Assembly: GCA_964371255.1 (NCBI GenBank)
Contig: CAYJKV010000001.1
Coordinates: 32,573 to 96,572, forward strand
Direction of reading: 5' to 3'
DNA length: 64,000 nt
Origin: an uncultured Candidatus Saccharibacteria bacterium
GTDB taxonomy: Bacteria; Patescibacteriota; Andersenbacteria; UBA10190
The position numbers and the translations under genes were made by a program. Positions 6,068-20,254 of this stretch are shown piece after piece. The notes under the pieces are model-generated. The model was given only the letters and a program-made list of their open reading frames with translations, had not been told where the DNA came from and did no database searches. Numbering within the stretch: position 1 is the first letter of the stretch; every line of letters begins with the position of its first letter.

Positions 6068-8284
6068 ATGGCATGGATTAAGTGGCTATCAGGTCTGGCG
6101 GTCGGCGTCGTCGTCCTTCTTTTGTTATTGAGCCCAGTCAAATATTATCGGACGGTGAGTGAAGGAACGGATGTGTATGAAGCGCATTATGTTTTATATG
6201 GCGACCGGATACAGGAACAAAGAGTGCAAATAGATCATGAGTTAGTGGGGATAGGAGCGATAGCAGTAGATTTCCGCCGCTCGCAGAACTTGAAACCACT
6301 GGAAGTGACAGTGCGGACGCTGGATGGAGAGATAGTGTCTCGGGGAAAAATTTCTCCCGACAAGGTAGCAGACGATAGCTTCGTCTGGGCTGAATTGAGC
6401 GAGAGGGTAGAACGCCGGGGCGAGGTAGTTATTGAATTCAAAGCACCACAGGCGGAAGTGAAGAATCCGGTGGGGCTACGTTTTGAAAAGGAGAGTGGGC
6501 ACGTAGCGTTGGGGCTGCTGGAGAGGGTGTCGTTAGCCCAGAGAACTGTGATTTGGACACAAGATCATCCGGACAGAGCGTTAAGGCTATGGCTGGTGGT
6601 CACGGGCGGATGTTTAATAGCGCTTATTTTGAGCTTGGCTGGCATACAAAGAAGGATAGGCAAATTGAGTGTAACTACTTGGCTGATTATTGGACTGGCC
6701 ATTATTACATTGTTAGTGCGAATTAGGACGGCGGTGCAGGTGGAAAGCGTATTTGGCGGAGATGCTTTTAACTATTTAATTCAGAGCCAGGCTTGGTTGG
6801 CTGGTGACAATCCATTTGCGGAGGAATTTAGAAGAAAGGCGCCATTTTTACCATTTTTGTTATTACCGGGGTGGCTGGGACTGATTGATCCGATCGTGTG
6901 GGGAAGAATTATTAGCATGATCGCGGCAGCGGGAGCGGTAGTGATGCTGCCCCGATTGTTAATGTTTTTTCAAATACCGCGTCAATTGGCGCTGGGGGCA
7001 GGATTATTGTTGGCTGTTAATAGAAATTTTTGGTGGGAGTCGGTGCATGGTTTGGCTAATACTTTGTATGCCGCGCTGATAGTGGGGGCAGTGTATGCAT
7101 TTATGCTGCACCGCAAGAAATATGGCAGATATTTAGTTGGGGTATTGGTGGGATTGACGACATTAACGCGATGGGAGGGAGGAGCAGTCGCGGCAGTACT
7201 GTTGCCAGCGGTGTGGATTTGGCATCGATTAAATATTAAAACAATTATTTATAGTGGCTGGCCGGCGTTAGTTTTGGTGGCAGTTCCTTTTGTCTTCTGG
7301 CCAATCACTGGTGAAACTGGCATGCGAACTGTGGCTGATATCGCGGGTGACGGGGGACTGAAACTGGCTTATTCATGGGGCGATTTTGTCGGCAACCTGG
7401 AAGGGCTAGAGCTTTTCTTGGGAAGAAACTGGATTTTGGTGGAAGGGGTGGGTGAGCAGTTGGGGTGGCTGGCGGGTGGTTTGGCGAGTGGTCTAGTTTT
7501 AGGCTTCTGGCACCGGAAAAAATACTGGATTTATAGCGGACTGGTGAGATTTCTGCCTTATGGGCTGATAATTATTTTATTGGTCGTATTAGCGGGCAGT
7601 TCGCGGGAGAGCTACAAATACCTGACGATGGTTTTGACGGCACTGACGGGGGCGGGCTGGGGAGCAAGTCTCGTGATCAAACCGAAATTTAGTATACCGG
7701 TGGGCCTAATGCTGATTGGTCAAGTGTTGGTGATAACCATGATATTGCCGAAGTCGAGATATTATTTACAGTTGATTCCCTTCTTATGTGCGGGGTTGAT
7801 ATTTGGCTTGTGGATGATCAGCGATTGGCGGCGGTCATCTGTAAGCCGAGTGGGCACGATTTTGTTGGTCGGAGTTTTCTCGATGATGGTTTATTTGGAC
7901 AGTGCGCGGGCGATGCCCGGCACGATAAGCGGCTATAATGAGAAATCCGGCAATCATACGGTCGTGACGCAAGCGTGCAAATACTTATTAGACAAGCCAG
8001 GAAATGTGGGAGTGGTTGAAGAAAGCGATCTGCCGGCACGGGTTTACTTAACTTTAGAGCGGACGAGAATTTTTCCCATCGAATGGGCAGAGAATATGGA
8101 AGATTTAACCGATGAGGAGATTTATAGGTGGCTCGAGGAATTTAATATCAGCTACATGATCGAGACAACTGCTCAACCAGTGTTTGATATAGTTGAACGG
8201 CACCCGGATGATTTTGAGTTTCTGAAGAAATTTAGCAGCCGGTACACGGAAGAGGAAGCGACGGTATATCGGGTAAAAAAATAG
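6068..8284 (+). CDS. Large polytopic membrane protein (738 aa, more than 12 TM segments plus a C-terminal soluble domain). Possibly a GT-C-type glycosyltransferase.
   Basis: Many hydrophobic segments. Convergent with a GT4 glycosyltransferase. No catalytic motif confidently identified. Confidence 0.45.
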   Translation: MAWIKWLSGLAVGVVVLLLLLSPVKYYRTVSEGTDVYEAHYVLYGDRIQEQRVQIDHELVGIGAIAVDFRRSQNLKPLEVTVRTLDGEIVSRGKISPDKVADDSFVWAELSERVERRGEVVIEFKAPQAEVKNPVGLRFEKESGHVALGLLERVSLAQRTVIWTQDHPDRALRLWLVVTGGCLIALILSLAGIQRRIGKLSVTTWLIIGLAIITLLVRIRTAVQVESVFGGDAFNYLIQSQAWLAGDNPFAEEFRRKAPFLPFLLLPGWLGLIDPIVWGRIISMIAAAGAVVMLPRLLMFFQIPRQLALGAGLLLAVNRNFWWESVHGLANTLYAALIVGAVYAFMLHRKKYGRYLVGVLVGLTTLTRWEGGAVAAVLLPAVWIWHRLNIKTIIYSGWPALVLVAVPFVFWPITGETGMRTVADIAGDGGLKLAYSWGDFVGNLEGLELFLGRNWILVEGVGEQLGWLAGGLASGLVLGFWHRKKYWIYSGLVRFLPYGLIIILLVVLAGSSRESYKYLTMVLTALTGAGWGASLVIKPKFSIPVGLMLIGQVLVITMILPKSRYYLQLIPFLCAGLIFGLWMISDWRRSSVSRVGTILLVGVFSMMVYLDSARAMPGTISGYNEKSGNHTVVTQACKYLLDKPGNVGVVEESDLPARVYLTLERTRIFPIEWAENMEDLTDEEIYRWLEEFNISYMIETTAQPVFDIVERHPDDFEFLKKFSSRYTEEEATVYRVKK

Positions 8285-8329
8285 GAAAACAGTGACGTCG
8301 GATTGGTCGAAGAGCAGGGAGTTTGGCGG

Positions 8330-9505
8330 TTAGGCCGGTTTTTTGCTGAGATCGGTATAGAGGTCAATGAATTGCTGAATGACAGTATCGATGGCGTGGT
8401 TTTGAATACGTGCCAGACTGGCTTGGCCCATGCGCCGTAAAAGTGGCTGGTCGGCAAGCAGACGAAGTAAATGCCGGGCAAACTGCTCGTGGTCATGGGC
8501 TGAGAATAATAAGCCATTCTCGTCAGCAGCAACGAGCTCAGGAAGGGCTACGGAGTTGGCCGCGACAACGGGAAGACCGCAGGCCATGGCTTCCATGGTG
8601 GCGATGCTTTGTAATTCGGCGGTACTGGCGGTAGTGAATATTTGGGCTGAGCAGTAGAGGGCAGGCAGATCCGGGGCGGGAACAAAACCGGTAAAAGTAA
8701 CAGCCTGGTCGATTTTTAATCGCCTGGTAAGGTGACGCAGGTGATGAGCGGCGCTGCCATTTTTCGAGCCGACGACGACCAGGTGGATAGGCCTGGTTTG
8801 GAGCACTTGGGCCACTGTGTGCAGGATGGTGTCGATGTTTTTTTCTTTATCTAAGCGGCCAACGGTGATGATGGTGGGCAAGTTAGGCAGCCGGTATTTT
8901 TTTCTAACCGCTGGCGTGTCGTAGTGGGGATTAAATTTTTTCAGATCAATGCCATTGGAAATAACTTGAACAGGTTTGGTGAAACCGTGTTCGATCAGAA
9001 GATTAGCAGCAGTTCGGGTAGGTGTGGTGACGGCGTCCAAGGAAGCAAAGTAATTAATGCATTGCTGCCACAGTTTAGCGTTGAGACGGGCTTCGACAGC
9101 CGGGGGGAGGCGCAAATAATGAGTTAAGTTATCCGGCATAAAATGGTTAGTACCAACGATGGGGATACGTAACTTTCTGGCCTGACGAACGACGGCCTGG
9201 GAAAGCCAGAAATGTCCCTGGGCATGAATGATATCTGGTTGAAACTGTTTGATGGCAGAAGCGATGGTTCGCTGATTCAGGCGCGGTACGGCGATGCGCA
9301 TATTGTTGATATACAAGGGAACTGAACGTATGCCGAGGGTAGTAACTTTGTCTTGTAGATATTTTTCTTGGCGGCCTGATCGGGAGGGGGCGATGACCTG
9401 GACCTGATGCGAGTGCTCAGTCAGTCTTTGGGCTAAACGATAGGTGAAATAAGCAGCGCCATTGACGTGCGGCGGGTAAGTATCGGTGACAATAAGAACT
9501 TTCAT
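8330..9505 (-). CDS. Glycosyltransferase family 4 (GT-B fold).
   Basis: N-terminus MKVLIVTDTYPPHVNGAAY; C-terminal EAMACGLPVVA...E motif (E-x7-E). Confidence 0.8.
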   Translation of the reverse strand: MKVLIVTDTYPPHVNGAAYFTYRLAQRLTEHSHQVQVIAPSRSGRQEKYLQDKVTTLGIRSVPLYINNMRIAVPRLNQRTIASAIKQFQPDIIHAQGHFWLSQAVVRQARKLRIPIVGTNHFMPDNLTHYLRLPPAVEARLNAKLWQQCINYFASLDAVTTPTRTAANLLIEHGFTKPVQVISNGIDLKKFNPHYDTPAVRKKYRLPNLPTIITVGRLDKEKNIDTILHTVAQVLQTRPIHLVVVGSKNGSAAHHLRHLTRRLKIDQAVTFTGFVPAPDLPALYCSAQIFTTASTAELQSIATMEAMACGLPVVAANSVALPELVAADENGLLFSAHDHEQFARHLLRLLADQPLLRRMGQASLARIQNHAIDTVIQQFIDLYTDLSKKPA

Positions 9506-11901: not shown

Positions 11902-13119
11902 ATGACCAGACGGATAATTGGTAGGGCGATAATAGGCGGAGTGGTTGCGCTAATAGTGTTAGTGTCAGTGGCGCTGTGGTTTGCGTGGGATGGTCTGGCG
12001 GTAGAGAGGTGGATAACAAAAATGAGTCCGGATTTAATGGCCTGTGGGGTAGAAATGGTGCTGTTCAGCGAATGGCCAGCGGACAAGGATAAAGTATCGG
12101 CGATAACACCATTAGGTAGCATGGAGCCTGAAAGCGGAATGGTGTTTCCTCGTGATCGCCTGTTGTGGCATACGGGGGGTAAGGGTGGAGCGAACAACGG
12201 TGATCAGTCGATGCCCGTACAGATAGTGGCACCGGGTAATGGGTGGATAACTAAAGTCGAGGAGATTGAGTGGTGGTCTGGTAACAAAATGACAGAGCGG
12301 GATTTTGTGCTTTATTTTTCCCCCTGTCGAGAAGTGGAAGCTAAATTCAGTCACATACAAATGCTGGCTACCAATATCGATGAGCAGACGAAAGGGATGT
12401 GGAGTGAACAAGTTAGTGATCAGGCAGGTGCGGTAACTGTTCGATCAAGAGAGGCAAAAGTCAAGATTGCAGTGCGGGCAGGGGAGGGTATGGGTCGAGT
12501 TGGTGGAACAGAGCGCTCCCAGGCTTTTGATTGGGGTATGACAGACGAGAGAGGCAAAACCTTTAATCTTGCGAGTGCAACGCCTAAGGAATATCAAGCA
12601 GATTACACAGTTTGCCCGTTGGATTACTACGGGGGAGGGGTGCGGCGAGAATTGGAGAAATTGTTGGGAGATGGTCAAAAAACTAGAGAAATCATGCCGG
12701 TTTGTGGCTGGATAGACAAAAATATCGTGGGCACTTTGCAAGGCAGGTGGCGAGCAGAAAAGACGGCCCCGGGCGTGGGGGAGGATCAGCATGTGGCACT
12801 GGTGCATGATGAGATTGAGCCGCAGAAGCCTGTAATTAGCATGGGGACATCACTGCGGAAGAGCGGTTTGAAGGCCGGCTTGTATTATTTTCAAACAATG
12901 GAGACGGGCTATGTAAACAGAGATTTTGGCACGGTGACGGAGCAGGGGCAAGTTTATTGTTATCAGGGGATACGCGATGACCGGGGACAAATCGTACAAA
13001 GAATCGTGTTAATTGAACTGGTGGACGATAAATCTCTGCGCATGGAAGCGAGGCCGGGTTTTAGCTGTGCGGCCAATAATTATAATTTTTCTGACAGGAT
13101 GACAGCTTTTGAGCGTTAA
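11902..13119 (+). CDS. Hypothetical membrane-anchored protein (N-terminal TM, ~370-aa soluble domain), immediately upstream of the hydrogenase small subunit.
   Basis: TM segment IIGGVVALIVLVSVALWFAW. No family recognised. Only a 5-nt gap to the next gene. Confidence 0.4.
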   Translation: MTRRIIGRAIIGGVVALIVLVSVALWFAWDGLAVERWITKMSPDLMACGVEMVLFSEWPADKDKVSAITPLGSMEPESGMVFPRDRLLWHTGGKGGANNGDQSMPVQIVAPGNGWITKVEEIEWWSGNKMTERDFVLYFSPCREVEAKFSHIQMLATNIDEQTKGMWSEQVSDQAGAVTVRSREAKVKIAVRAGEGMGRVGGTERSQAFDWGMTDERGKTFNLASATPKEYQADYTVCPLDYYGGGVRRELEKLLGDGQKTREIMPVCGWIDKNIVGTLQGRWRAEKTAPGVGEDQHVALVHDEIEPQKPVISMGTSLRKSGLKAGLYYFQTMETGYVNRDFGTVTEQGQVYCYQGIRDDRGQIVQRIVLIELVDDKSLRMEARPGFSCAANNYNFSDRMTAFER

Positions 13120-13124
13120 CAGGC

Positions 13125-13646
13125 TTGGATAAATTTTATGTTATGATAGGGCACATGAAGGAACAAACCAAAAAATTGCGGGTGGGATGGTTTACCTTCA
13201 CTTGCTGTGAGGATTCGACAATAGTTTTTACAGAAGTTTTAAATGATTATTGGCAGGAATGGCGCAAGCGCATTGATTTTGTGCACGCGAGGATTTTGCA
13301 GGCAAAAAACTCGGAGGGGGAGTTAGATGTAGCATTTATTGAAGGGGCAATTTCCTCGGCAGAACAAAAGCAAAGATTAGAGAAGATTAGAAAGCAAGCG
13401 CAGTGGGTGGTGGCCGTGGGATCATGTGCGGTGGTGGGTATGCCCTCGGCGCAGCGTAACCAATTTGACGAAAAAACTAAACAAGAAATTGGCTTTATTT
13501 TAGAAAGATTTCATCACTTAGAGCACGTCATGTCTGTCAAGGACGTGGTCAAGGTGGAAGCGGAGTTGCCAGGTTGTCCGATGGATCCGAAGCAGTTTGT
13601 GGCGGTGGTCAATAAGGCGCTGGAGCATTTTGGCGTTGTTTCTTAA
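13125..13646 (+). CDS. [NiFe]-hydrogenase small subunit, NuoB/HoxY-like, with only the proximal [4Fe-4S] cluster.
   Basis: Four-Cys pattern FTCCEDS ... VGSCAVVG ... PGCPMDP (NuoB/Oxidored_q6 signature). No Tat signal. 173 aa. Confidence 0.75.
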   Translation: MDKFYVMIGHMKEQTKKLRVGWFTFTCCEDSTIVFTEVLNDYWQEWRKRIDFVHARILQAKNSEGELDVAFIEGAISSAEQKQRLEKIRKQAQWVVAVGSCAVVGMPSAQRNQFDEKTKQEIGFILERFHHLEHVMSVKDVVKVEAELPGCPMDPKQFVAVVNKALEHFGVVS

Positions 13647-13660
13647 AGCAAAGCACTAAT

Positions 13661-14956
13661 ATGCATACGATAGATTTAGACTTGTCCTTGGATGAGGTGA
13701 CAAAAGTGGAAGGAGCAGCAAAATTAGCAGTGAAGGTTCGCCGAGGCAAGGTTGAAAAATGCACTTTCGCGATTACTGAATATAAAAGATTTTACACGCA
13801 GGCCATGCGGGGAAAAATGTATAAGTCACTGCCGCAGCTGCTAATGAGGATTTGCGGTACTTGTTCTAACGCTCACCTGCTGGCTTCCATTGAGTCTTGT
13901 GAAAAGGCGCTGGGATATGACGTATCAGGACAAACTAAGATTATGAAGAATTTGACGGTAGATGGTTTATTAATTCGGGATCACGCGTTACATCTGTATT
14001 TATTCGCTTTGCCAGATCTGTATGGCAAGGACAATTTCCTGTCTTTAGACGACCAGGACGAGGAGCAACACCAGCATCTGCATGATGCTTTCGCCATCAA
14101 AGCAGCAGGGAATTATTTAGCGCAAATTATTGCTGGCCGCAGCGTCCACGCGATCAATCCGGTGATTGGCGGTTTTCTAAAAGTACCGTTGCAGGAAGAA
14201 GTAGATGAAGCAATTCGGTCGTTGGTTGAGATCAGGCCGGCGGTGCTGCGGTTAATTAATACGTTTGCCAAGTGTGACTGGCATTTTGATCGGCAGACTA
14301 ATTATATGGCGTTAGTGAGCAATCCCTATGGCTATTTGGAAGGACAAATTAAAGACAATCATGGCAAGGTTATTCCGGAAGATCTATACCGTGATCATCT
14401 GGAACGGGTGGTACTGCCTTACTCCCAAGCGTCTGGCTATACGTATCAGGGGGAGTCTTTTATGGTGGGAGCGCTGGCCCGAATGAATTTGTCCAAAGAA
14501 ACATTGCACGCAGACACTAAAAAGGATGCGGCTAAAGCGTTAGAAAGGTTTCCGTCCACTAATATTTATGACAATAACCTGGCTCAGGCGATTGAGATAT
14601 TAAATGCCATGGACACGGCCGAGTATCTGCTTAGAACAACTAAGTTTAAAGCAGAGAAACCAGCCGAACCGACAAAAAAAGAGGGTGTAGGCGTGGGGGT
14701 AGTGGAAGCACCAAGGGGGACATTATATCATCGGGTTGAAATTGAGACGGATGGCAAAGTGTCGCAAGGCACTATCGTCGTACCAACCGGGCAGAATCAG
14801 ATCAATATCGAACAGGACTTAGCGAGTGTAGCTGAGCAGAAGATAAGCGAGGGGAAAAACAAGGATGAAATTCAATTTGAGATGGAAAAACTGATCCGAG
14901 CTTATGATCCGTGCATGAGCTGCGCGGCGCATTTTTTGGAAGTTAAATGGAACTGA
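13661..14956 (+). CDS. [NiFe]-hydrogenase large (catalytic) subunit.
   Basis: N-terminal L1 motif RICGTCSNAH (RxCGxCxxxH) and C-terminal L2 motif DPCMSCAAH (DPCxxCxxH). 431 aa. Confidence 0.9.
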   Translation: MHTIDLDLSLDEVTKVEGAAKLAVKVRRGKVEKCTFAITEYKRFYTQAMRGKMYKSLPQLLMRICGTCSNAHLLASIESCEKALGYDVSGQTKIMKNLTVDGLLIRDHALHLYLFALPDLYGKDNFLSLDDQDEEQHQHLHDAFAIKAAGNYLAQIIAGRSVHAINPVIGGFLKVPLQEEVDEAIRSLVEIRPAVLRLINTFAKCDWHFDRQTNYMALVSNPYGYLEGQIKDNHGKVIPEDLYRDHLERVVLPYSQASGYTYQGESFMVGALARMNLSKETLHADTKKDAAKALERFPSTNIYDNNLAQAIEILNAMDTAEYLLRTTKFKAEKPAEPTKKEGVGVGVVEAPRGTLYHRVEIETDGKVSQGTIVVPTGQNQINIEQDLASVAEQKISEGKNKDEIQFEMEKLIRAYDPCMSCAAHFLEVKWN

Positions 14957-15332
14957 CTTGATTGAGCTTTCTAATGACAGCAGCTAGAGCTGCTGGCGGG
15001 GTGATGCGGACTGGTAGACCAATAATTATAAACGGTGGCAGGCGGTTTAACTTGGCGAGCCAACGTAAGTTAGTGATCAGGTCGAAGTCATGGAGCGTGA
15101 CGCGGGGGGAAAGCTTGAAAGCGTCGAGCGATCGAAAAGTCTGAGGAGATTTCAGGCCTTTAATAGTATCGATGATTATCAGCCGCGAGGGTAGGGTCCA
15201 TTCTTCGTGAGGGTCCTTAACAATGAACTCAAATTGAGGAAGTTTTTGTTGGAGGGTTGGCAGAATGCGCAGGGGTAAAGCGTCGGGGGGGAAGTCGGGA
15301 TTACCGAAGACCCAAACTGGTTGCCGTTTCAT
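14943..15332 (-). CDS. Hydrogenase maturation endopeptidase (HycI/HybD family).
   Basis: VFGNPDFPPDALPLRI near the N-terminus and TLHDFDL; 129 aa. Convergent with the large subunit. Confidence 0.7.
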   Translation of the reverse strand: MKRQPVWVFGNPDFPPDALPLRILPTLQQKLPQFEFIVKDPHEEWTLPSRLIIIDTIKGLKSPQTFRSLDAFKLSPRVTLHDFDLITNLRWLAKLNRLPPFIIIGLPVRITPPAALAAVIRKLNQVSSI

Positions 15333-15382: not shown

Positions 15383-16150
15383 TTAGAGGGTTTGGTTAGC
15401 GAGGTTAATTGATAAGGCTGTGTATTTCTTGAGGTTAGCTAGTTGGCGGGCAGAAATGATATCGCAAGGCGTATCCCAGTGTAAGGATATAATATCGTTG
15501 ACTTGCAGGCGGTCGAAGGTGGGGAGGGCAGTAAAGGGACGGACTATTTGCTGAGTAATAGCGGTGCCGAGAGATAGTTTTTGGTGATGCAGAGTTAATG
15601 GTTGGCGAGTAATAGTTAGCAGCGGACCATTGATGGCCGTTACTTGTCCCCAAGAAATGAGACACTGATCGAGGCTAGCTAATGTGTGGTCGACGTTATG
15701 ATGGCCAGTACGGCGCCAGACATTTAAGACATGAAAGGAATGATGCATGAGCGCACCCCGCGTGAGTTTGTCTTTAAGGCGATCCATGGCTGGACCGGAG
15801 GGGAGGGGCCGGAGATGGTTTGTAATATGTCGATAAAAAGTTTTGGCGGGAATCGTGTCGAGCAAGTGGTTGCCCAGCCAGTAAGCTTCAACGACGCGGT
15901 AATCAAATGGGTCTTTGATATGATTAGCGGCGGCAATTTGCTGGAGGTAAGGAAAAAGGGTCTGAAATTTGGCAACGATATTGGTGAGTCCGGAATCGAC
16001 AGCTCCAGCGTTGATGTAGCTTAATACTTCCTGGTTCATATCCGGTCCGCAGAGGTGGAGACGGTTCGGACCAAAAGCATAACGCGTGCAAACGGCTACA
16101 CCGTCGCGGACCGGCTGATGGCGCGAAGAGACAGCCTGTCTTGCGATCAT
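15383..16150 (-). CDS. Hypothetical protein (255 aa, His-rich), overlapping by 4 nt with (and so probably co-transcribed with) the upstream DMT transporter gene.
   Basis: ORF with no recognised family. HHSFHV, HH, HH clusters. Confidence 0.4.
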   Translation of the reverse strand: MIARQAVSSRHQPVRDGVAVCTRYAFGPNRLHLCGPDMNQEVLSYINAGAVDSGLTNIVAKFQTLFPYLQQIAAANHIKDPFDYRVVEAYWLGNHLLDTIPAKTFYRHITNHLRPLPSGPAMDRLKDKLTRGALMHHSFHVLNVWRRTGHHNVDHTLASLDQCLISWGQVTAINGPLLTITRQPLTLHHQKLSLGTAITQQIVRPFTALPTFDRLQVNDIISLHWDTPCDIISARQLANLKKYTALSINLANQTL

Positions 16151-17070
16151 GGGTGCGGCGAATAATCAGGTTGGGGGCGATGATGAGCGGGTAAATTACC
16201 AGCGCGGGAAATAATAAGGATGGTGCCTAGACTGATCAGGGCGGTGCTTAGCAACTGCAGGGACGGAAAAGTGTGAGTGATGAAAATGGCAGTGAGGATG
16301 TTGGTGACAAGAGTGGCTGGTACTAGCAGGCTGGCGACTAATACGGCTGGAGCATACTTAAGGGCGGTGTACCAGGTGACGACGTAGCCGGTAAGCAATA
16401 GGCCGGTGAGAATAGTCCAACTCCATTGCGCGGGCGAGAGAGTGAGAATGACGCTGGTTTTGTGTTGAGCAATTAGCACTAGACTGATGACAATGGAGCC
16501 AATTAACATGCGGGTGCTGGCGACCAATAAACTGGAGCAACTATTTAATACTTTCTTGGATATGATATTTTCAATCGCCCACAGCAGGGTGGCGCCGAGA
16601 ACCATAAATTCACCAATGTGACCGGTAAAGCGCGGGATGCCAAATAGTCCTAAGTTACCGATTAGTAATAAACACAGGGCGCCCAGTTGCAGCCAGCTAA
16701 TCTTTTCCTTAAGGAAGGGTACGGCGAGCAGGGCAACCCAGAGAAAAAGTGTCTTATGAATAAAAGCTGCCTGGGCGACCGGAATGAGCGATAGGCCAGT
16801 AAAGAAAAGAATAAAAGGAACTCCACCGCCCAATATACCGATAAATAGCAGCTGAATAATTTGTGGTTTTCGCAGGAGTTTAATTTCGCGCCAGCGACTG
16901 GTGATTAAAATAGCACTGAGTAGTAAAAGGACTGTAATGGCATTTTTAAGGAAGGTGAAGACTATTGGATCCGCAACGGTTGTGACTGCGATCTTGGATA
17001 AAAAATTGTTGGTTCCGGAAATGAAAGCCGTTACCAGACCTAAGATTATGGCAAGCTTTAGTTTGGTCAT
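16147..17070 (-). CDS. EamA/DMT-superfamily transporter (10 TM).
   Basis: Two EamA-like halves; 307 aa, highly hydrophobic. Confidence 0.75.
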   Translation of the reverse strand: MTKLKLAIILGLVTAFISGTNNFLSKIAVTTVADPIVFTFLKNAITVLLLLSAILITSRWREIKLLRKPQIIQLLFIGILGGGVPFILFFTGLSLIPVAQAAFIHKTLFLWVALLAVPFLKEKISWLQLGALCLLLIGNLGLFGIPRFTGHIGEFMVLGATLLWAIENIISKKVLNSCSSLLVASTRMLIGSIVISLVLIAQHKTSVILTLSPAQWSWTILTGLLLTGYVVTWYTALKYAPAVLVASLLVPATLVTNILTAIFITHTFPSLQLLSTALISLGTILIISRAGNLPAHHRPQPDYSPHP

Positions 17071-17076
17071 AGAAGC

Positions 17077-18315
17077 CTAGGTGGGAATAAGCTTATTGAG
17101 GTCAAAATTAGAATCGGCTAGCTCAGATTTTTTATCGGCAATGTTTGTATTACTAGCGATTATTTTGCTAATGGCTTGCAGGATAGGTGTTTGGTTGATT
17201 AAGACGGCACCGACCACTTGATCGCTGACGGTAATAATTTGAGCGTGCTGGTTGGCGGATAGTCCGTGGCGAATGATGGTCGAAATCGTCTTTTGCGGAC
17301 TGACGTTGCCAATAAAGGTAATAGAAGTATCGAAGCCGTGAGAAGTATAAAAAGAGACGAAGGTGAAGGGTGTTTTAGCGCCTAACATATTCAAACCGGC
17401 GATCCGGCCTTGCTCTTGGGCGTTAACCCAGTTACCGAGTTGCACCTCTTCTTCGAGAATCGGATCAGAAAATTGTGATACGTCGCCGGCGGTCCAAACG
17501 TCTGGCAGATTAGTTTGCAAGTGTTGGTCAGCGAGGATGCCACGGTCTATTTTAATACCTGAATCCTTGACCCAATCAATATTACAACAGGCACCGATCC
17601 CGCAAATAACTGCATCACAGGGAATGGAAGTGCCGTCCTGCAAAGTGACCCCGGTCACATTAATGTTGCCATCGATATGAGTGACCTGAGCGCGTCGGAT
17701 CATTTTAACTCCGTTTTGTTCAATAGCTTGTTCAACGATCTGACTGGCGGTCTCATCCAGGATGGATTCCCAAAACCGGTTTTCCCGGATGATAATAGTT
17801 ACCTCTGCCCCGGACATACGCATAATATTGGCCATTTCAAAACTGATAAAACCGCCACCCACGGCCACGGCACGCTTAACTGTGCTAACCGATTCAATAA
17901 TTCCTTTGCCTTGGTCAAGGGTGCGCAGATAATGGACCCCGCGTTTTTCAATACCAGGCACGGCGAGGGGTCGAGGCGATGTGCCCGTGGCTAAGAGTAG
18001 CTTGTCGTACTTAATACCAGAATTGTCGTCCAGATGGATCAGCTTGTCTTGGTGGTCTAAGCTAGTAACGGTTCGGCCGCCGATAAAAGTGATGTTTTTG
18101 TCTTGATACCAGTTCTCATCGCGCAACCAAATTTGGTCAAAAGGAATTTTTCCCAGAAAAAAATTGGGTTTCGACAGCATGATGCGGGAATACAGGTAGT
18201 GCGGCTCGTCGCTAATAATCGCTATAGTGCCGGTGGAGTCATGTTGACGAATAGTACCGGCCGCGGTAGTGCCGGCCACACCGCCTCCGACAATTACATA
18301 TTTATATTCCGGCAT
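17077..18315 (-). CDS. FAD-dependent pyridine nucleotide-disulfide oxidoreductase, ferredoxin/rubredoxin-reductase-like.
   Basis: N-terminal GxGxxG VIVGGGVAGTTAA; second NAD(P) fold VAVGGGFISFEMA; 412 aa. Confidence 0.8.
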   Translation of the reverse strand: MPEYKYVIVGGGVAGTTAAGTIRQHDSTGTIAIISDEPHYLYSRIMLSKPNFFLGKIPFDQIWLRDENWYQDKNITFIGGRTVTSLDHQDKLIHLDDNSGIKYDKLLLATGTSPRPLAVPGIEKRGVHYLRTLDQGKGIIESVSTVKRAVAVGGGFISFEMANIMRMSGAEVTIIIRENRFWESILDETASQIVEQAIEQNGVKMIRRAQVTHIDGNINVTGVTLQDGTSIPCDAVICGIGACCNIDWVKDSGIKIDRGILADQHLQTNLPDVWTAGDVSQFSDPILEEEVQLGNWVNAQEQGRIAGLNMLGAKTPFTFVSFYTSHGFDTSITFIGNVSPQKTISTIIRHGLSANQHAQIITVSDQVVGAVLINQTPILQAISKIIASNTNIADKKSELADSNFDLNKLIPT

Positions 18316-18318
18316 GGA

Positions 18319-18573
18319 TTAACTAACTAGTTGGCCATCCTTGTCGTAGAGGGATATGGCCTTGGTGGGGCAGGCTTGGGCCGAGGCAATTAAAGCGTCA
18401 TCATCAGGCGCATTGGCGTCCTTAACAACAACCTTATTCTCGTTGTCCATTTCATAAGCAGCTGCAACCGGTGCCAGGCATGATTGAGCACCAATACACA
18501 AGTCGCGGTCGACGACGATCTTGGCGATTTTTGAACCTGCTTTATTGCGTAGATATTCTATTTGGTTGGACAT
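18319..18573 (-). CDS. Small single-cluster ferredoxin. Start assigned to the internal ATG (MSNQIEY...).
   Basis: VVDRDLCIGAQSCLAPV ... ACPTKAI pattern of single-[3Fe/4Fe-4S] ferredoxins. Directly downstream of the oxidoreductase. Confidence 0.7.
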   Translation of the reverse strand: MSNQIEYLRNKAGSKIAKIVVDRDLCIGAQSCLAPVAAAYEMDNENKVVVKDANAPDDDALIASAQACPTKAISLYDKDGQLVS

Positions 18574-18637
18574 AAAAAAATAATGAAAGATAAATAGGGT
18601 TGCGTTTAAATATATTATAGCCATAGTAGTAAAGTAT

Positions 18638-19831
18638 ATGCGAGTTTATCTTGACCACGCGGCCACCACCGCTTGTGATAATGAGGTGATGCAAGCGATG
18701 CAGCCTTATTGGCAAACGAAGTTTGGTAACCCATCGTCGCCTTATGGTATGGGCGGGGAGGCGGAAGAGGCTTTGCAAACAGCCAGACAACAAGTGGCGG
18801 ATTTGATAGGGGGAAGTCGCGATGAAATTGTCTTCGTGGGAAGCGGGACAGCGAGCGATAACATGGCTGTCAAGGGGGTAGCGTTCAAGTGGCAAAATAA
18901 AGGACGACATATTATTACGACACAAATTGAGCATCCGGCCGTACTGGAAAGTTGTCGCTGGCTGAATAAACAGGGATTTGAAATAACGTATCTGCCGGTC
19001 GATGCGTGGGGGGTCGTGCAATTAAGTGAATTAAGAAAGGCGATCCGGGATGATACCATTTTAGTGTCGGTCATGCATGGTAATAATGAGGTCGGCTCCC
19101 TACAGCCGATTGAGCAGATTAGCAAAATCACGCGGGAAAAGGGAGTTTATCTGCACGTTGACGCAGTGCAAACGGGCGGCAGCGTACCGATCGACGTTAA
19201 AAAATTAGGAGTTGATTTGTTAAGTTTATCAGCCCATAAACTTTACGGGCCCAAGGGCGTGGGCGTGTTATATATCAGAAAGGGCGTAACTTTGGATCCA
19301 TGGCTGCATGGCGGCCAGCAGGAGAATCGGTGGCGTGCCTCGACACAAAATGTGCCGGGCATTGTCGGTTTTGGACGGGCGGCAGAATTGGCGCGGGAAA
19401 GAATGACGAAGGATTCGGTCCGGATGGCTACATTACGAGCTAAGCTGCAGAACGGCCTGGTCAGTCGCATACCAGATATTAAAATCAATGGCCATCCGAC
19501 GGACCGGGTGCCAAATAATTTGAATATTTCAGTGGTCGGGGTAGAGGGAGAAGGGATGGTATTATACTTAGATACGGCAGGGGTAATGTGTTCGACCGGT
19601 TCCGCGTGTTCATCGCACAATTTACAGCCATCACATGTTTTATTAGCGATGGGTTTAAAACATGAAGTAGCTCATGGTTCGTTACGGTTTACATTAGGGC
19701 GAGAAACAACGACTCAACAAATAGATTATGTGCTGGAAGTTTTACCGCCGATTGTGAGTAGGTTACGGTCTATGTCGCCATTGGTGCAGACGCAGGCCGG
19801 CCAACCGAAGATAATGGTCGGCGCTCACTAG
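18638..19831 (+). CDS. iscS: Cysteine desulfurase (IscS/NifS family).
   Basis: PLP-lysine motif SAHKLYGPKG; active-site loop SSGSACSS; 397 aa. Confidence 0.9.
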   Translation: MRVYLDHAATTACDNEVMQAMQPYWQTKFGNPSSPYGMGGEAEEALQTARQQVADLIGGSRDEIVFVGSGTASDNMAVKGVAFKWQNKGRHIITTQIEHPAVLESCRWLNKQGFEITYLPVDAWGVVQLSELRKAIRDDTILVSVMHGNNEVGSLQPIEQISKITREKGVYLHVDAVQTGGSVPIDVKKLGVDLLSLSAHKLYGPKGVGVLYIRKGVTLDPWLHGGQQENRWRASTQNVPGIVGFGRAAELARERMTKDSVRMATLRAKLQNGLVSRIPDIKINGHPTDRVPNNLNISVVGVEGEGMVLYLDTAGVMCSTGSACSSHNLQPSHVLLAMGLKHEVAHGSLRFTLGRETTTQQIDYVLEVLPPIVSRLRSMSPLVQTQAGQPKIMVGAH

Positions 19832-19876
19832 CTAAAAATTGCGTGTCAGGATAGTTGACTATTAAAATAGGCTCAT

Positions 19877-20254
19877 ATGCTTCAATACAGCGAAAAGGTC
19901 AAAGACCACTTAATGAATCCACGGAATGTAGGAACGATGGACGAACCCAGCGGGGTTGGGTCCGTTGGAAATCCAGTGTGCGGCGATATTATGGAAATGT
20001 ACCTGAAAGTAGAAAACGGTGTGATTACCGATGCTAAATTTCGCACGTTTGGTTGCGGCGCGGCGATTGCCACCAGCTCGATGGTGACAGAGCTGGTGAA
20101 GGGCAAAACGTTGGAAGAAGCGATGAATATTACGAAAGAAGTGCTAGTAAATGAGCTCGACGGTTTGCCACCGATTAAGACGCATTGCTCGGTGTTGGGG
20201 ATTGAGGCTTTACATAAAGCCATCGCTGATTATAAGGCTAAGAGTGTTGCTTGA
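19877..20254 (+). CDS. iscU: Fe-S cluster assembly scaffold (IscU/NifU N-terminal type).
   Basis: NPRNVG, CGD, FGCGAAIA and KTHCS motifs; 125 aa. Confidence 0.9.
   Translation: MLQYSEKVKDHLMNPRNVGTMDEPSGVGSVGNPVCGDIMEMYLKVENGVITDAKFRTFGCGAAIATSSMVTELVKGKTLEEAMNITKEVLVNELDGLPPIKTHCSVLGIEALHKAIADYKAKSVA

Follow-up and report, generated by a model that had tools for sequence, protein, structure and literature searches.

We examined a 64,000-nucleotide stretch of an uncultured Candidatus Saccharibacteria bacterium (contig CAYJKV010000001.1, positions 32,573 to 96,572; hereafter the window) that carries a compact [NiFe]-hydrogenase locus. It comprises a small-subunit gene, hydS (13125..13646, plus strand), a large-subunit gene, hydL (13661..14956, plus strand), and a maturation protease gene (14943..15332, minus strand), all three of which were confirmed at the positions given in a preliminary description of this DNA. 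hydL encoded a 431-amino-acid catalytic subunit (Pfam NiFeSe_Hases, E = 4.3e-31) with the L1 motif RICGTCSNAH beginning at R63 and the L2 motif DPCMSCAAH beginning at D416, followed by a seven-residue C-terminal extension (FLEVKWN). Across an alignment of 21 homologues (60-100% identity), C68, C418, C421, H424, E17 and the arginine of an APRG motif were invariant, and C65 was kept in at least 90%. hydS encoded a small subunit with one cluster, of the hyd2 type described below (Pfam Oxidored_q6, E = 4.4e-21). Its start was ambiguous, with TTG at 13125 giving 173 amino acids, ATG at 13143 giving 167 and ATG at 13155 giving 163. The protein contained four cysteines in total (C27, C28, C101 and C151) and no twin-arginine motif in its sequence; together with the intact L1 and L2 motifs, this upheld the earlier reading of a two-subunit [NiFe] enzyme that is cytoplasmic and has one cluster in its small subunit.

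Both subunits found their best matches among group 3b hydrogenases (Pyrococcus furiosus SHI and SHII, Thermococcus kodakarensis Hyh; structures 5yxy and 9nez), to which hydL aligned end to end and which are likewise cytoplasmic and processed by a HycI-type protease. The top NCBIfam models for hydL were ShyA (260 bits; cutoff 700) and HydA (220 bits; cutoff 880), the alpha subunits of the Pyrococcus sulfhydrogenases; at roughly one-third, these scores fell far below the equivalog cutoffs, and the FrhA and VhuA models scored much lower still. Among solved structures, the 3b alpha subunits 5yxy and 9nez (~206 bits) came ahead of MvhA (168 bits) and HoxH (5xf9_D, 98 bits), and no group 4 family appeared among the NCBIfam or PDB matches. 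More than 4,700 database proteins matched hydL at E <= 1e-10, the nearest named ones being from Patescibacteria (Kerfeld-, Veblen- and Parcubacteria). Identity to canonical 3b enzymes was 23-40%. hydL lies outside the biochemically characterized subgroups, in line with the preliminary description. The preliminary description had also suggested a HoxY-like (group 3d) or group 4 affinity, which did not survive. Group 3d HoxY/HoxH (5xf9) is similarly cytoplasmic with a single-cluster small subunit of ~180 amino acids, and complex I NuoB and group 4 small subunits also carry a single cluster, but hydL scored 98 bits to HoxH against 206 bits to group 3b, no HoxEFU genes were present in the window, and there were no membrane or antiporter subunits, the only membrane protein of the gene module being an EamA permease. 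Both readings were therefore rejected on large-subunit similarity and missing partners.

To place the enzyme, we scanned GTDB species representatives with the large-subunit alignment, which yielded 80 loci; with the window and four more added through protein look-ups, the comparative set comprised 65 hyd2-type and 20 canonical 3b loci. Identity to the window hydL dropped from 68% to 45%, followed by a gap down to 36% or less. In a neighbor-joining tree without bootstrap, 64 full-length hyd2 sequences were monophyletic with respect to the 20 canonical 3b sequences and two outgroups, members of the clade sharing 40-99% identity with one another and 23-40% with canonical 3b. The sequence comparisons thus place the window enzyme in the hyd2 clade, which spans Candidate Phyla Radiation (CPR) bacteria and DPANN archaea and is sister, on a long branch, to group 3b. 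A large-subunit phylogeny had been proposed as a check on the preliminary description; the neighbor-joining tree did set a distinct clade apart, and by its NCBIfam and PDB matches hydL is closest to group 3b, not to 3d or 4.

This architecture is not new, having already been published under the name hyd2. Jaffe et al. 2020 (BMC Biol 18:69, PMC7304191) split the group-3b-related hydrogenases of CPR bacteria into hyd1 and hyd2, describing hyd2 as a long branch with a truncated small subunit (mean 164 amino acids) and no adjacent beta or gamma genes. They also reported PF07992 or Fe-S domains near some hyd2 loci, in neighbor plots drawn for same-strand genes only, and stated that the "function remains uncertain". 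The window locus agreed with every point of that description and showed no essential difference from the CPR hyd2 enzymes, sharing the large-subunit clade, the truncated small subunit and the lack of beta and gamma. In the literature collection searched, no later work used the name hyd2. Hydrogenases of the DPANN metagenome-assembled genomes (MAGs) LFW-29, LFW-121_3 and LFW-125_1 were assigned to HydDB group 3b (PMC8561730), and the corresponding loci (L042, L056 and L066) fell inside the hyd2 clade in our set. In the same tree, sequences from DPANN archaea (Aenigm-, Micr-, Woese- and Iainarchaeota) were nested within hyd2 beside Gracilibacteria and Peregrinibacteria, which suggests transfer between these two groups of ultra-small organisms. 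Loci from outside the CPR comprised L035-L056, L066 and L086 (DPANN), L051 (a Nitrososphaeraceae MAG) and L043 (a Chloroflexota MAG); the last two could be binning errors. Beyond PMC7304191, the presence of hyd2 in DPANN archaea, the accessory gene module, the ferredoxin type and the linkage to 2-oxoacid metabolism are now quantified, as set out below.

The small subunit of hyd2 differs from that of group 3b. The best PDB match of hydS was the N-terminal half of a sulfhydrogenase delta subunit (E = 5.7e-13), with alignment to residues ~1-150 of its 261 amino acids. Past the GCP motif, the window hydS continued for 15 residues without cysteine, and the tails in 64 hyd2 loci were 8-38 residues long with at most one cysteine, whereas all canonical 3b loci had ~105 residues with 8-10 cysteines, the medial/distal-cluster domain that hydS lacks. 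The small-subunit open reading frame (ORF) measured 152-181 amino acids across most of the 64 loci; ORFs were called mechanically, and a minority ran longer. The first ligand pair also differed: canonical 3b sequences had C28-x-x-C31 ("CEGC"), CPR hyd2 sequences including the window had C27-C28 with S/N31 ("CCEDS"), a change from CxxC to CC...S, and DPANN members had C27...C31 ("CDEGC"). The tandem-cysteine arrangement is reminiscent of NuoB, whose cluster N2 has CC ligation. NuoB models in NCBIfam covered residues 49-108 of hydS alone (E = 1e-5), and the likeness is a resemblance without homology past the common fold. In five further small subunits (L030, L046, L055, L061 and L065), C27 was the sole cysteine of the first pair ("CSEDS/N"); that of L030 had three cysteines in total, which implies a non-cysteine ligand or a 3Fe cluster.

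Downstream of hydL lies a set of accessory genes on the opposite strand. The first is the protease gene, convergent with hydL and overlapping its end by 14 nucleotides, which encodes a divergent HycI/HybD-type maturation endopeptidase of 129 amino acids. Taken alone, the window protein scored 16.1 bits to HycI (PF01750) against a gathering score of 23 and had no Pfam match above threshold; it also gave a NiFeSe maturation protease match at E = 0.0037. In the family of 27 orthologues, 24 members matched PF01750 at E <= 1, and G10, N11, D17, D55, H81, D82 and D84 were invariant. Profile-profile comparison with hhalign, against a canonical HycI profile built from nine genes beside canonical 3b hydrogenases (two of them Pfam-verified), gave 97.9% probability (E = 5.9e-13), with GN, D17, D55 and H81 aligned to GN, D18, D64 and H96 of canonical HycI, so that the acidic/acidic/His triad for metal binding is conserved. 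A search of PDB sequences with the protease-family profile returned no match. By this comparison, the assignment of 14943-15332 as a hydrogenase maturation protease stands.

Neighboring genes were counted with phmmer, using the window proteins as queries, in 41 hyd2 and nine canonical 3b loci with at least 5 kb on both sides; phmmer labels were used because single-linkage clustering merged families through over-extended ORFs. The small subunit was found in all 41 hyd2 loci, the protease in 40 (usually convergent and directly after hydL), a DUF6390 protein in 30 and an EamA permease in 26. hydS, hydL, the protease, DUF6390 and EamA thus form a conserved five-gene module. Canonical 3b loci instead carried beta (Fer4_22), gamma (FAD_binding_6/NAD_binding_1), delta, alpha and a same-strand HycI, and lacked the hyd2 accessories except for a single EamA gene (1/9).

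The DUF6390 protein (PF19927; 15383..16150, minus strand), a family with at least 1,468 clusters at 90% identity in the database, consists of a helical, Cys/His-rich N-terminal domain and a C-terminal domain with a putatively HypC-like oligonucleotide/oligosaccharide-binding (OB) fold. C34, C163, C229, H108, H137, H140 and H224 were invariant. In its AlphaFold model the C-terminal 90 residues were confidently predicted as an OB barrel plus helix, and the N-terminal 135 residues had predicted local distance difference test (pLDDT) scores below 50 and no assigned fold. Alignment with HypC by hhalign gave 87% probability (E = 3.9e-6) and matched C163 with the essential Cys2 and H224 with the histidine of the GDxVxVH motif; we read DUF6390 as a putative HypC-domain fusion and a candidate maturation factor. 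The EamA/DMT-family permease (16147..17070, minus strand; Pfam EamA, E = 2e-32) could, we speculate, have a role in nickel supply. A Woesearchaeota locus (L068, 3030-5336) had a small subunit of canonical 3b length and yet encoded a hyd2-type EamA protein (E = 2e-51), a weak protease-like match and HypC nearby; from this gene content, the EamA link may extend beyond hyd2.

The canonical partners of group 3b were missing. Pfam and phmmer searches with Pfam-verified queries from three loci (L070, L072 and L080) found no match to beta or gamma subunits in the 64-kb window. The beta subunit was found in 0/65 hyd2 loci, and gamma-like domains in hyd2 loci were limited to one stand-alone copy and, in one subgroup, to acetyl-CoA synthetases that carry such a domain fused at the C terminus. 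Pfam searches of window ORFs detected neither HoxEFU (NuoE/F/G-like) nor membrane hydrogenase subunits, and no Hyp genes were found in the 64 kb by Pfam on all substantial ORFs and by phmmer with verified HypC, HypD, HypE and HypF; HypA and HypB were covered there by the Pfam pass, on ORFs of at least 110 amino acids. The HypC query ORFs were first traced through Escherichia coli HypC/HybG sequences, used as a lead only, and then verified with Pfam. In these respects the window bore out what had been noted at first, namely that HoxEFU, membrane modules and nearby hyp genes are absent. HypC, HypD, HypE and HypF lay directly beside hyd2 in three other loci (L018, L033 and L034), and HypC alone in ~13, so the clade probably uses the standard pathway and the absence from the window reflects gene dispersal. 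In a Nitrososphaera MAG (L075), the place of beta and gamma was taken by a gene for a 531-amino-acid [FeFe]-hydrogenase-like protein (7672-9264, plus strand; Fe_hyd_lg_C, Fer2_4, NADH-G_4Fe-4S_3), which is immediately followed by the gene for a NiFe small subunit of canonical 3b type.

The minus-strand string that contains the protease also holds genes for electron carriers. A single-cluster ferredoxin with three cysteines in a CxxAxxC...CP arrangement is encoded at 18319..18624 on the minus strand (Pfam Fer4_13 and Fer4_15; gene callers place the start at 18573, giving 84 amino acids), followed by an FAD- and NAD(P)H-dependent ferredoxin (or rubredoxin) reductase (17077..18315, minus strand; Pfam Pyr_redox_2, E = 9e-60, Rubredoxin_C and Reductase_C), whose best NCBIfam matches were the ferredoxin-NAD+ reductases PadH, HcaD and AndAa. 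The order ferredoxin-reductase-EamA-DUF6390-protease has gaps of 3, 6, -4 and 50 nucleotides, and the ferredoxin-reductase pair lies ~2 kb from the hydrogenase genes. The three-cysteine motif was kept in 70 of 74 ferredoxin homologues, and we take it to mark a [3Fe-4S] ferredoxin of the sort that works with FAD-dependent ferredoxin reductases. The preliminary description had called the redox partner unknown, with none encoded adjacently: for canonical subunits this held throughout the 64 kb, but the ferredoxin and Pyr_redox_2 reductase sharing a string with the protease tell against a locus with no partner.

Ferredoxin genes neighbored 16 of the 41 hyd2 loci and none of the nine canonical 3b loci, reductase genes 10 versus 0, and a two-subunit 2-oxoacid:ferredoxin oxidoreductase (OFOR), found by de novo clustering and verified with Pfam, 13 versus 0; any of the three was present in 21 versus 0. 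In seven loci from several lineages (L008, L018-L021, L023 and L029), ferredoxin, reductase, hydS and hydL followed one another on one strand with gaps of a few nucleotides. ADP-forming acetyl-CoA synthetase (ACD) accompanied OFOR in 12 loci and was Pfam-confirmed next to hyd2; in a Microgenomates-like subgroup, OFOR and ACD genes accompanied that of the ferredoxin, and the reductase was missing. Look-ups of DUF6390 homologues added two loci with hyd2, OFOR and ACD. The association was also tested in reverse, by a metagenome scan with the reductase alignment: among close reductase relatives (at least 38% identity), hyd2 was present in 13 of 24 informative loci, with hydS directly downstream in eight, and among distant relatives it was present in 0/19. 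Next to the ferredoxin gene, and divergent from it, the window encodes an IscS-type cysteine desulfurase and a NifU_N scaffold (18638-20254, plus strand), and an IscS-like ORF recurred in six hyd2 loci. One locus (L057, 8536-11391, minus strand) encoded a 952-amino-acid ACD fused to a C-terminal FNR-like FAD_binding_6/NAD_binding_1 domain, as did L048, L059, L061, L065 and L067; beside hyd2, the fusion gene belongs to a string that also contains OFOR, ferredoxin and EamA.

From this co-location we infer that the cytoplasmic [NiFe]-hydrogenase of the window, as a member of the CPR/DPANN hyd2 clade, is coupled to ferredoxin, a reading to which we assign a probability of roughly 0.6. HydL would make or split H2 at its [NiFe] site, and HydS, whose one cluster the missing C-terminal domain would leave exposed, would exchange electrons with the soluble three-cysteine ferredoxin. 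Electrons would move in either direction along a chain formed by the [NiFe] site, the HydS proximal Fe-S cluster, ferredoxin, the reductase FAD and NAD(P)(H). A dissociable ferredoxin would thereby take the place of the beta subunit and of the missing medial and distal clusters, and the Pyr_redox_2 flavoprotein is a candidate functional replacement for gamma. The ferredoxin at 18319-18624 is accordingly named here as a candidate direct electron partner. In other lineages the ferredoxin would link to OFOR-driven oxidation of 2-oxoacids, with ATP gain through ACD; since it is encoded there with OFOR and ACD, the enzyme probably vents (or recaptures) electrons of a small fermentative ferredoxin pool as H2. 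Maturation would proceed through ordinary HypCDEF, encoded elsewhere in the genome, plus DUF6390. As to direction, the fermentative context favors H2 evolution, whereas a higher-potential 3Fe-type ferredoxin would favor uptake.

Several observations weigh against coupling to ferredoxin. The potential of a [3Fe-4S]-type ferredoxin may lie well above that of the H+/H2 couple, a poor fit with H2 evolution. Genes for ferredoxin, reductase and OFOR were all absent within 5-10 kb in 20 of the 41 hyd2 loci, among them L005-L007 and L015, which are of the Kerfeldbacteria type. The ferredoxin-reductase pair also occurred without nearby hyd2 in 11 of the 24 informative loci, which makes it a free-standing module, and in the window it lies on the strand opposite hydS and hydL, which is weaker evidence than an operon would be. 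These loci on both sides of the comparison would suit the view of the preliminary description, a two-subunit hydrogenase that truly has no dedicated partner here, its redox partner being encoded elsewhere or unassigned and the ferredoxin and reductase serving redox balance or Fe-S biogenesis with IscS/NifU. A locus from the DUF6390 look-ups (L171) fits that arrangement, holding the ferredoxin, the reductase, IscS/NifU and DUF6390 with no hydrogenase within 7 kb, and the question was left open in PMC7304191. We nonetheless consider this explanation rather improbable, because the enrichment is specific in both directions, with the pair in 0/9 canonical 3b loci and hyd2 in 0/19 loci of distant reductases, and because the same-strand operon recurs across several lineages.

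That operon could also be read in a stronger sense, with HydS, HydL, ferredoxin and the Pyr_redox_2 flavoprotein forming a stable NAD(P)H hydrogenase complex equivalent to the alpha-beta-gamma-delta enzyme of group 3b and NAD(P)H as its sole physiological partner. The gene order ferredoxin-reductase-hydS-hydL does recall the beta-gamma-delta-alpha order of canonical 3b loci, and hydL is nearest to the NAD(P)-linked ShyA and HydA. Ferredoxins of the CxxAxxC...CP type, however, are normally soluble shuttles; that of the Microgenomates-like subgroup comes with OFOR and ACD and no reductase, and the strand arrangement in the window separates the pair from hydS and hydL. We regard a four-protein complex as unlikely, more so than the absence of a dedicated partner. 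Finally, it is very improbable that the enzyme is a sulfhydrogenase or has no catalytic role (as an H2 sensor, for instance, or a degenerate relic), in spite of the closest characterized relatives being the sulfhydrogenases SHI and SHII and the heavy reduction of the small subunit: the sulfhydrogenase reading was rejected for want of the beta subunit, which in group 3b is tied to S0 reduction, all Ni-Fe ligands, a protease with its C-terminal extension substrate and, in some genomes, adjacent HypCDEF point to an assembled active site, and no regulator is adjacent.

Generalized beyond the window, ferredoxin coupling would make hyd2 a distinct ferredoxin-dependent two-subunit class of [NiFe]-hydrogenases in CPR bacteria and DPANN archaea. 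Such a class would have a CC...S-ligated proximal cluster, a three-cysteine ferredoxin as the wire to OFOR and the FAD reductase, and a clade-specific DUF6390 HypC-domain fusion and EamA-type permease, the latter possibly for nickel. We offer this only tentatively, as a proposal that may well not hold in full.

Upstream of hydS, a 405-amino-acid ORF (11902-13119, plus strand) ends 5 nucleotides before the hydS start and may be co-transcribed with it. It has an N-terminal transmembrane helix and no Pfam or NCBIfam match, and it was found only in near-identical contigs. It was rejected as a hydrogenase subunit on account of its transmembrane anchor, the lack of a Pfam match and its absence from all other hyd2 loci. 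A scan for sigma-70 promoters and terminators performed no better than on shuffled sequence. GC skew was strongly positive (0.14-0.33) in all 2-kb bins from ~4 kb onward, whatever the gene strand, an unusually strong strand asymmetry.

The window by itself is unremarkable, a further member of a clade already in print, and the interest of these results lies in the proposed ferredoxin link, the altered cluster ligation and the DUF6390 and EamA accessories, both of them candidates for a lineage-specific role in maturation or metal supply. Both CPR bacteria and DPANN archaea abound in anoxic groundwater and sediments, and among the few currencies that they could trade with their hosts is hydrogen. 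hyd2 is the commonest type of hydrogenase in these organisms, and its linkage to ferredoxin, reductase, OFOR and ACD gives a concrete hypothesis for the path that its electrons may take.

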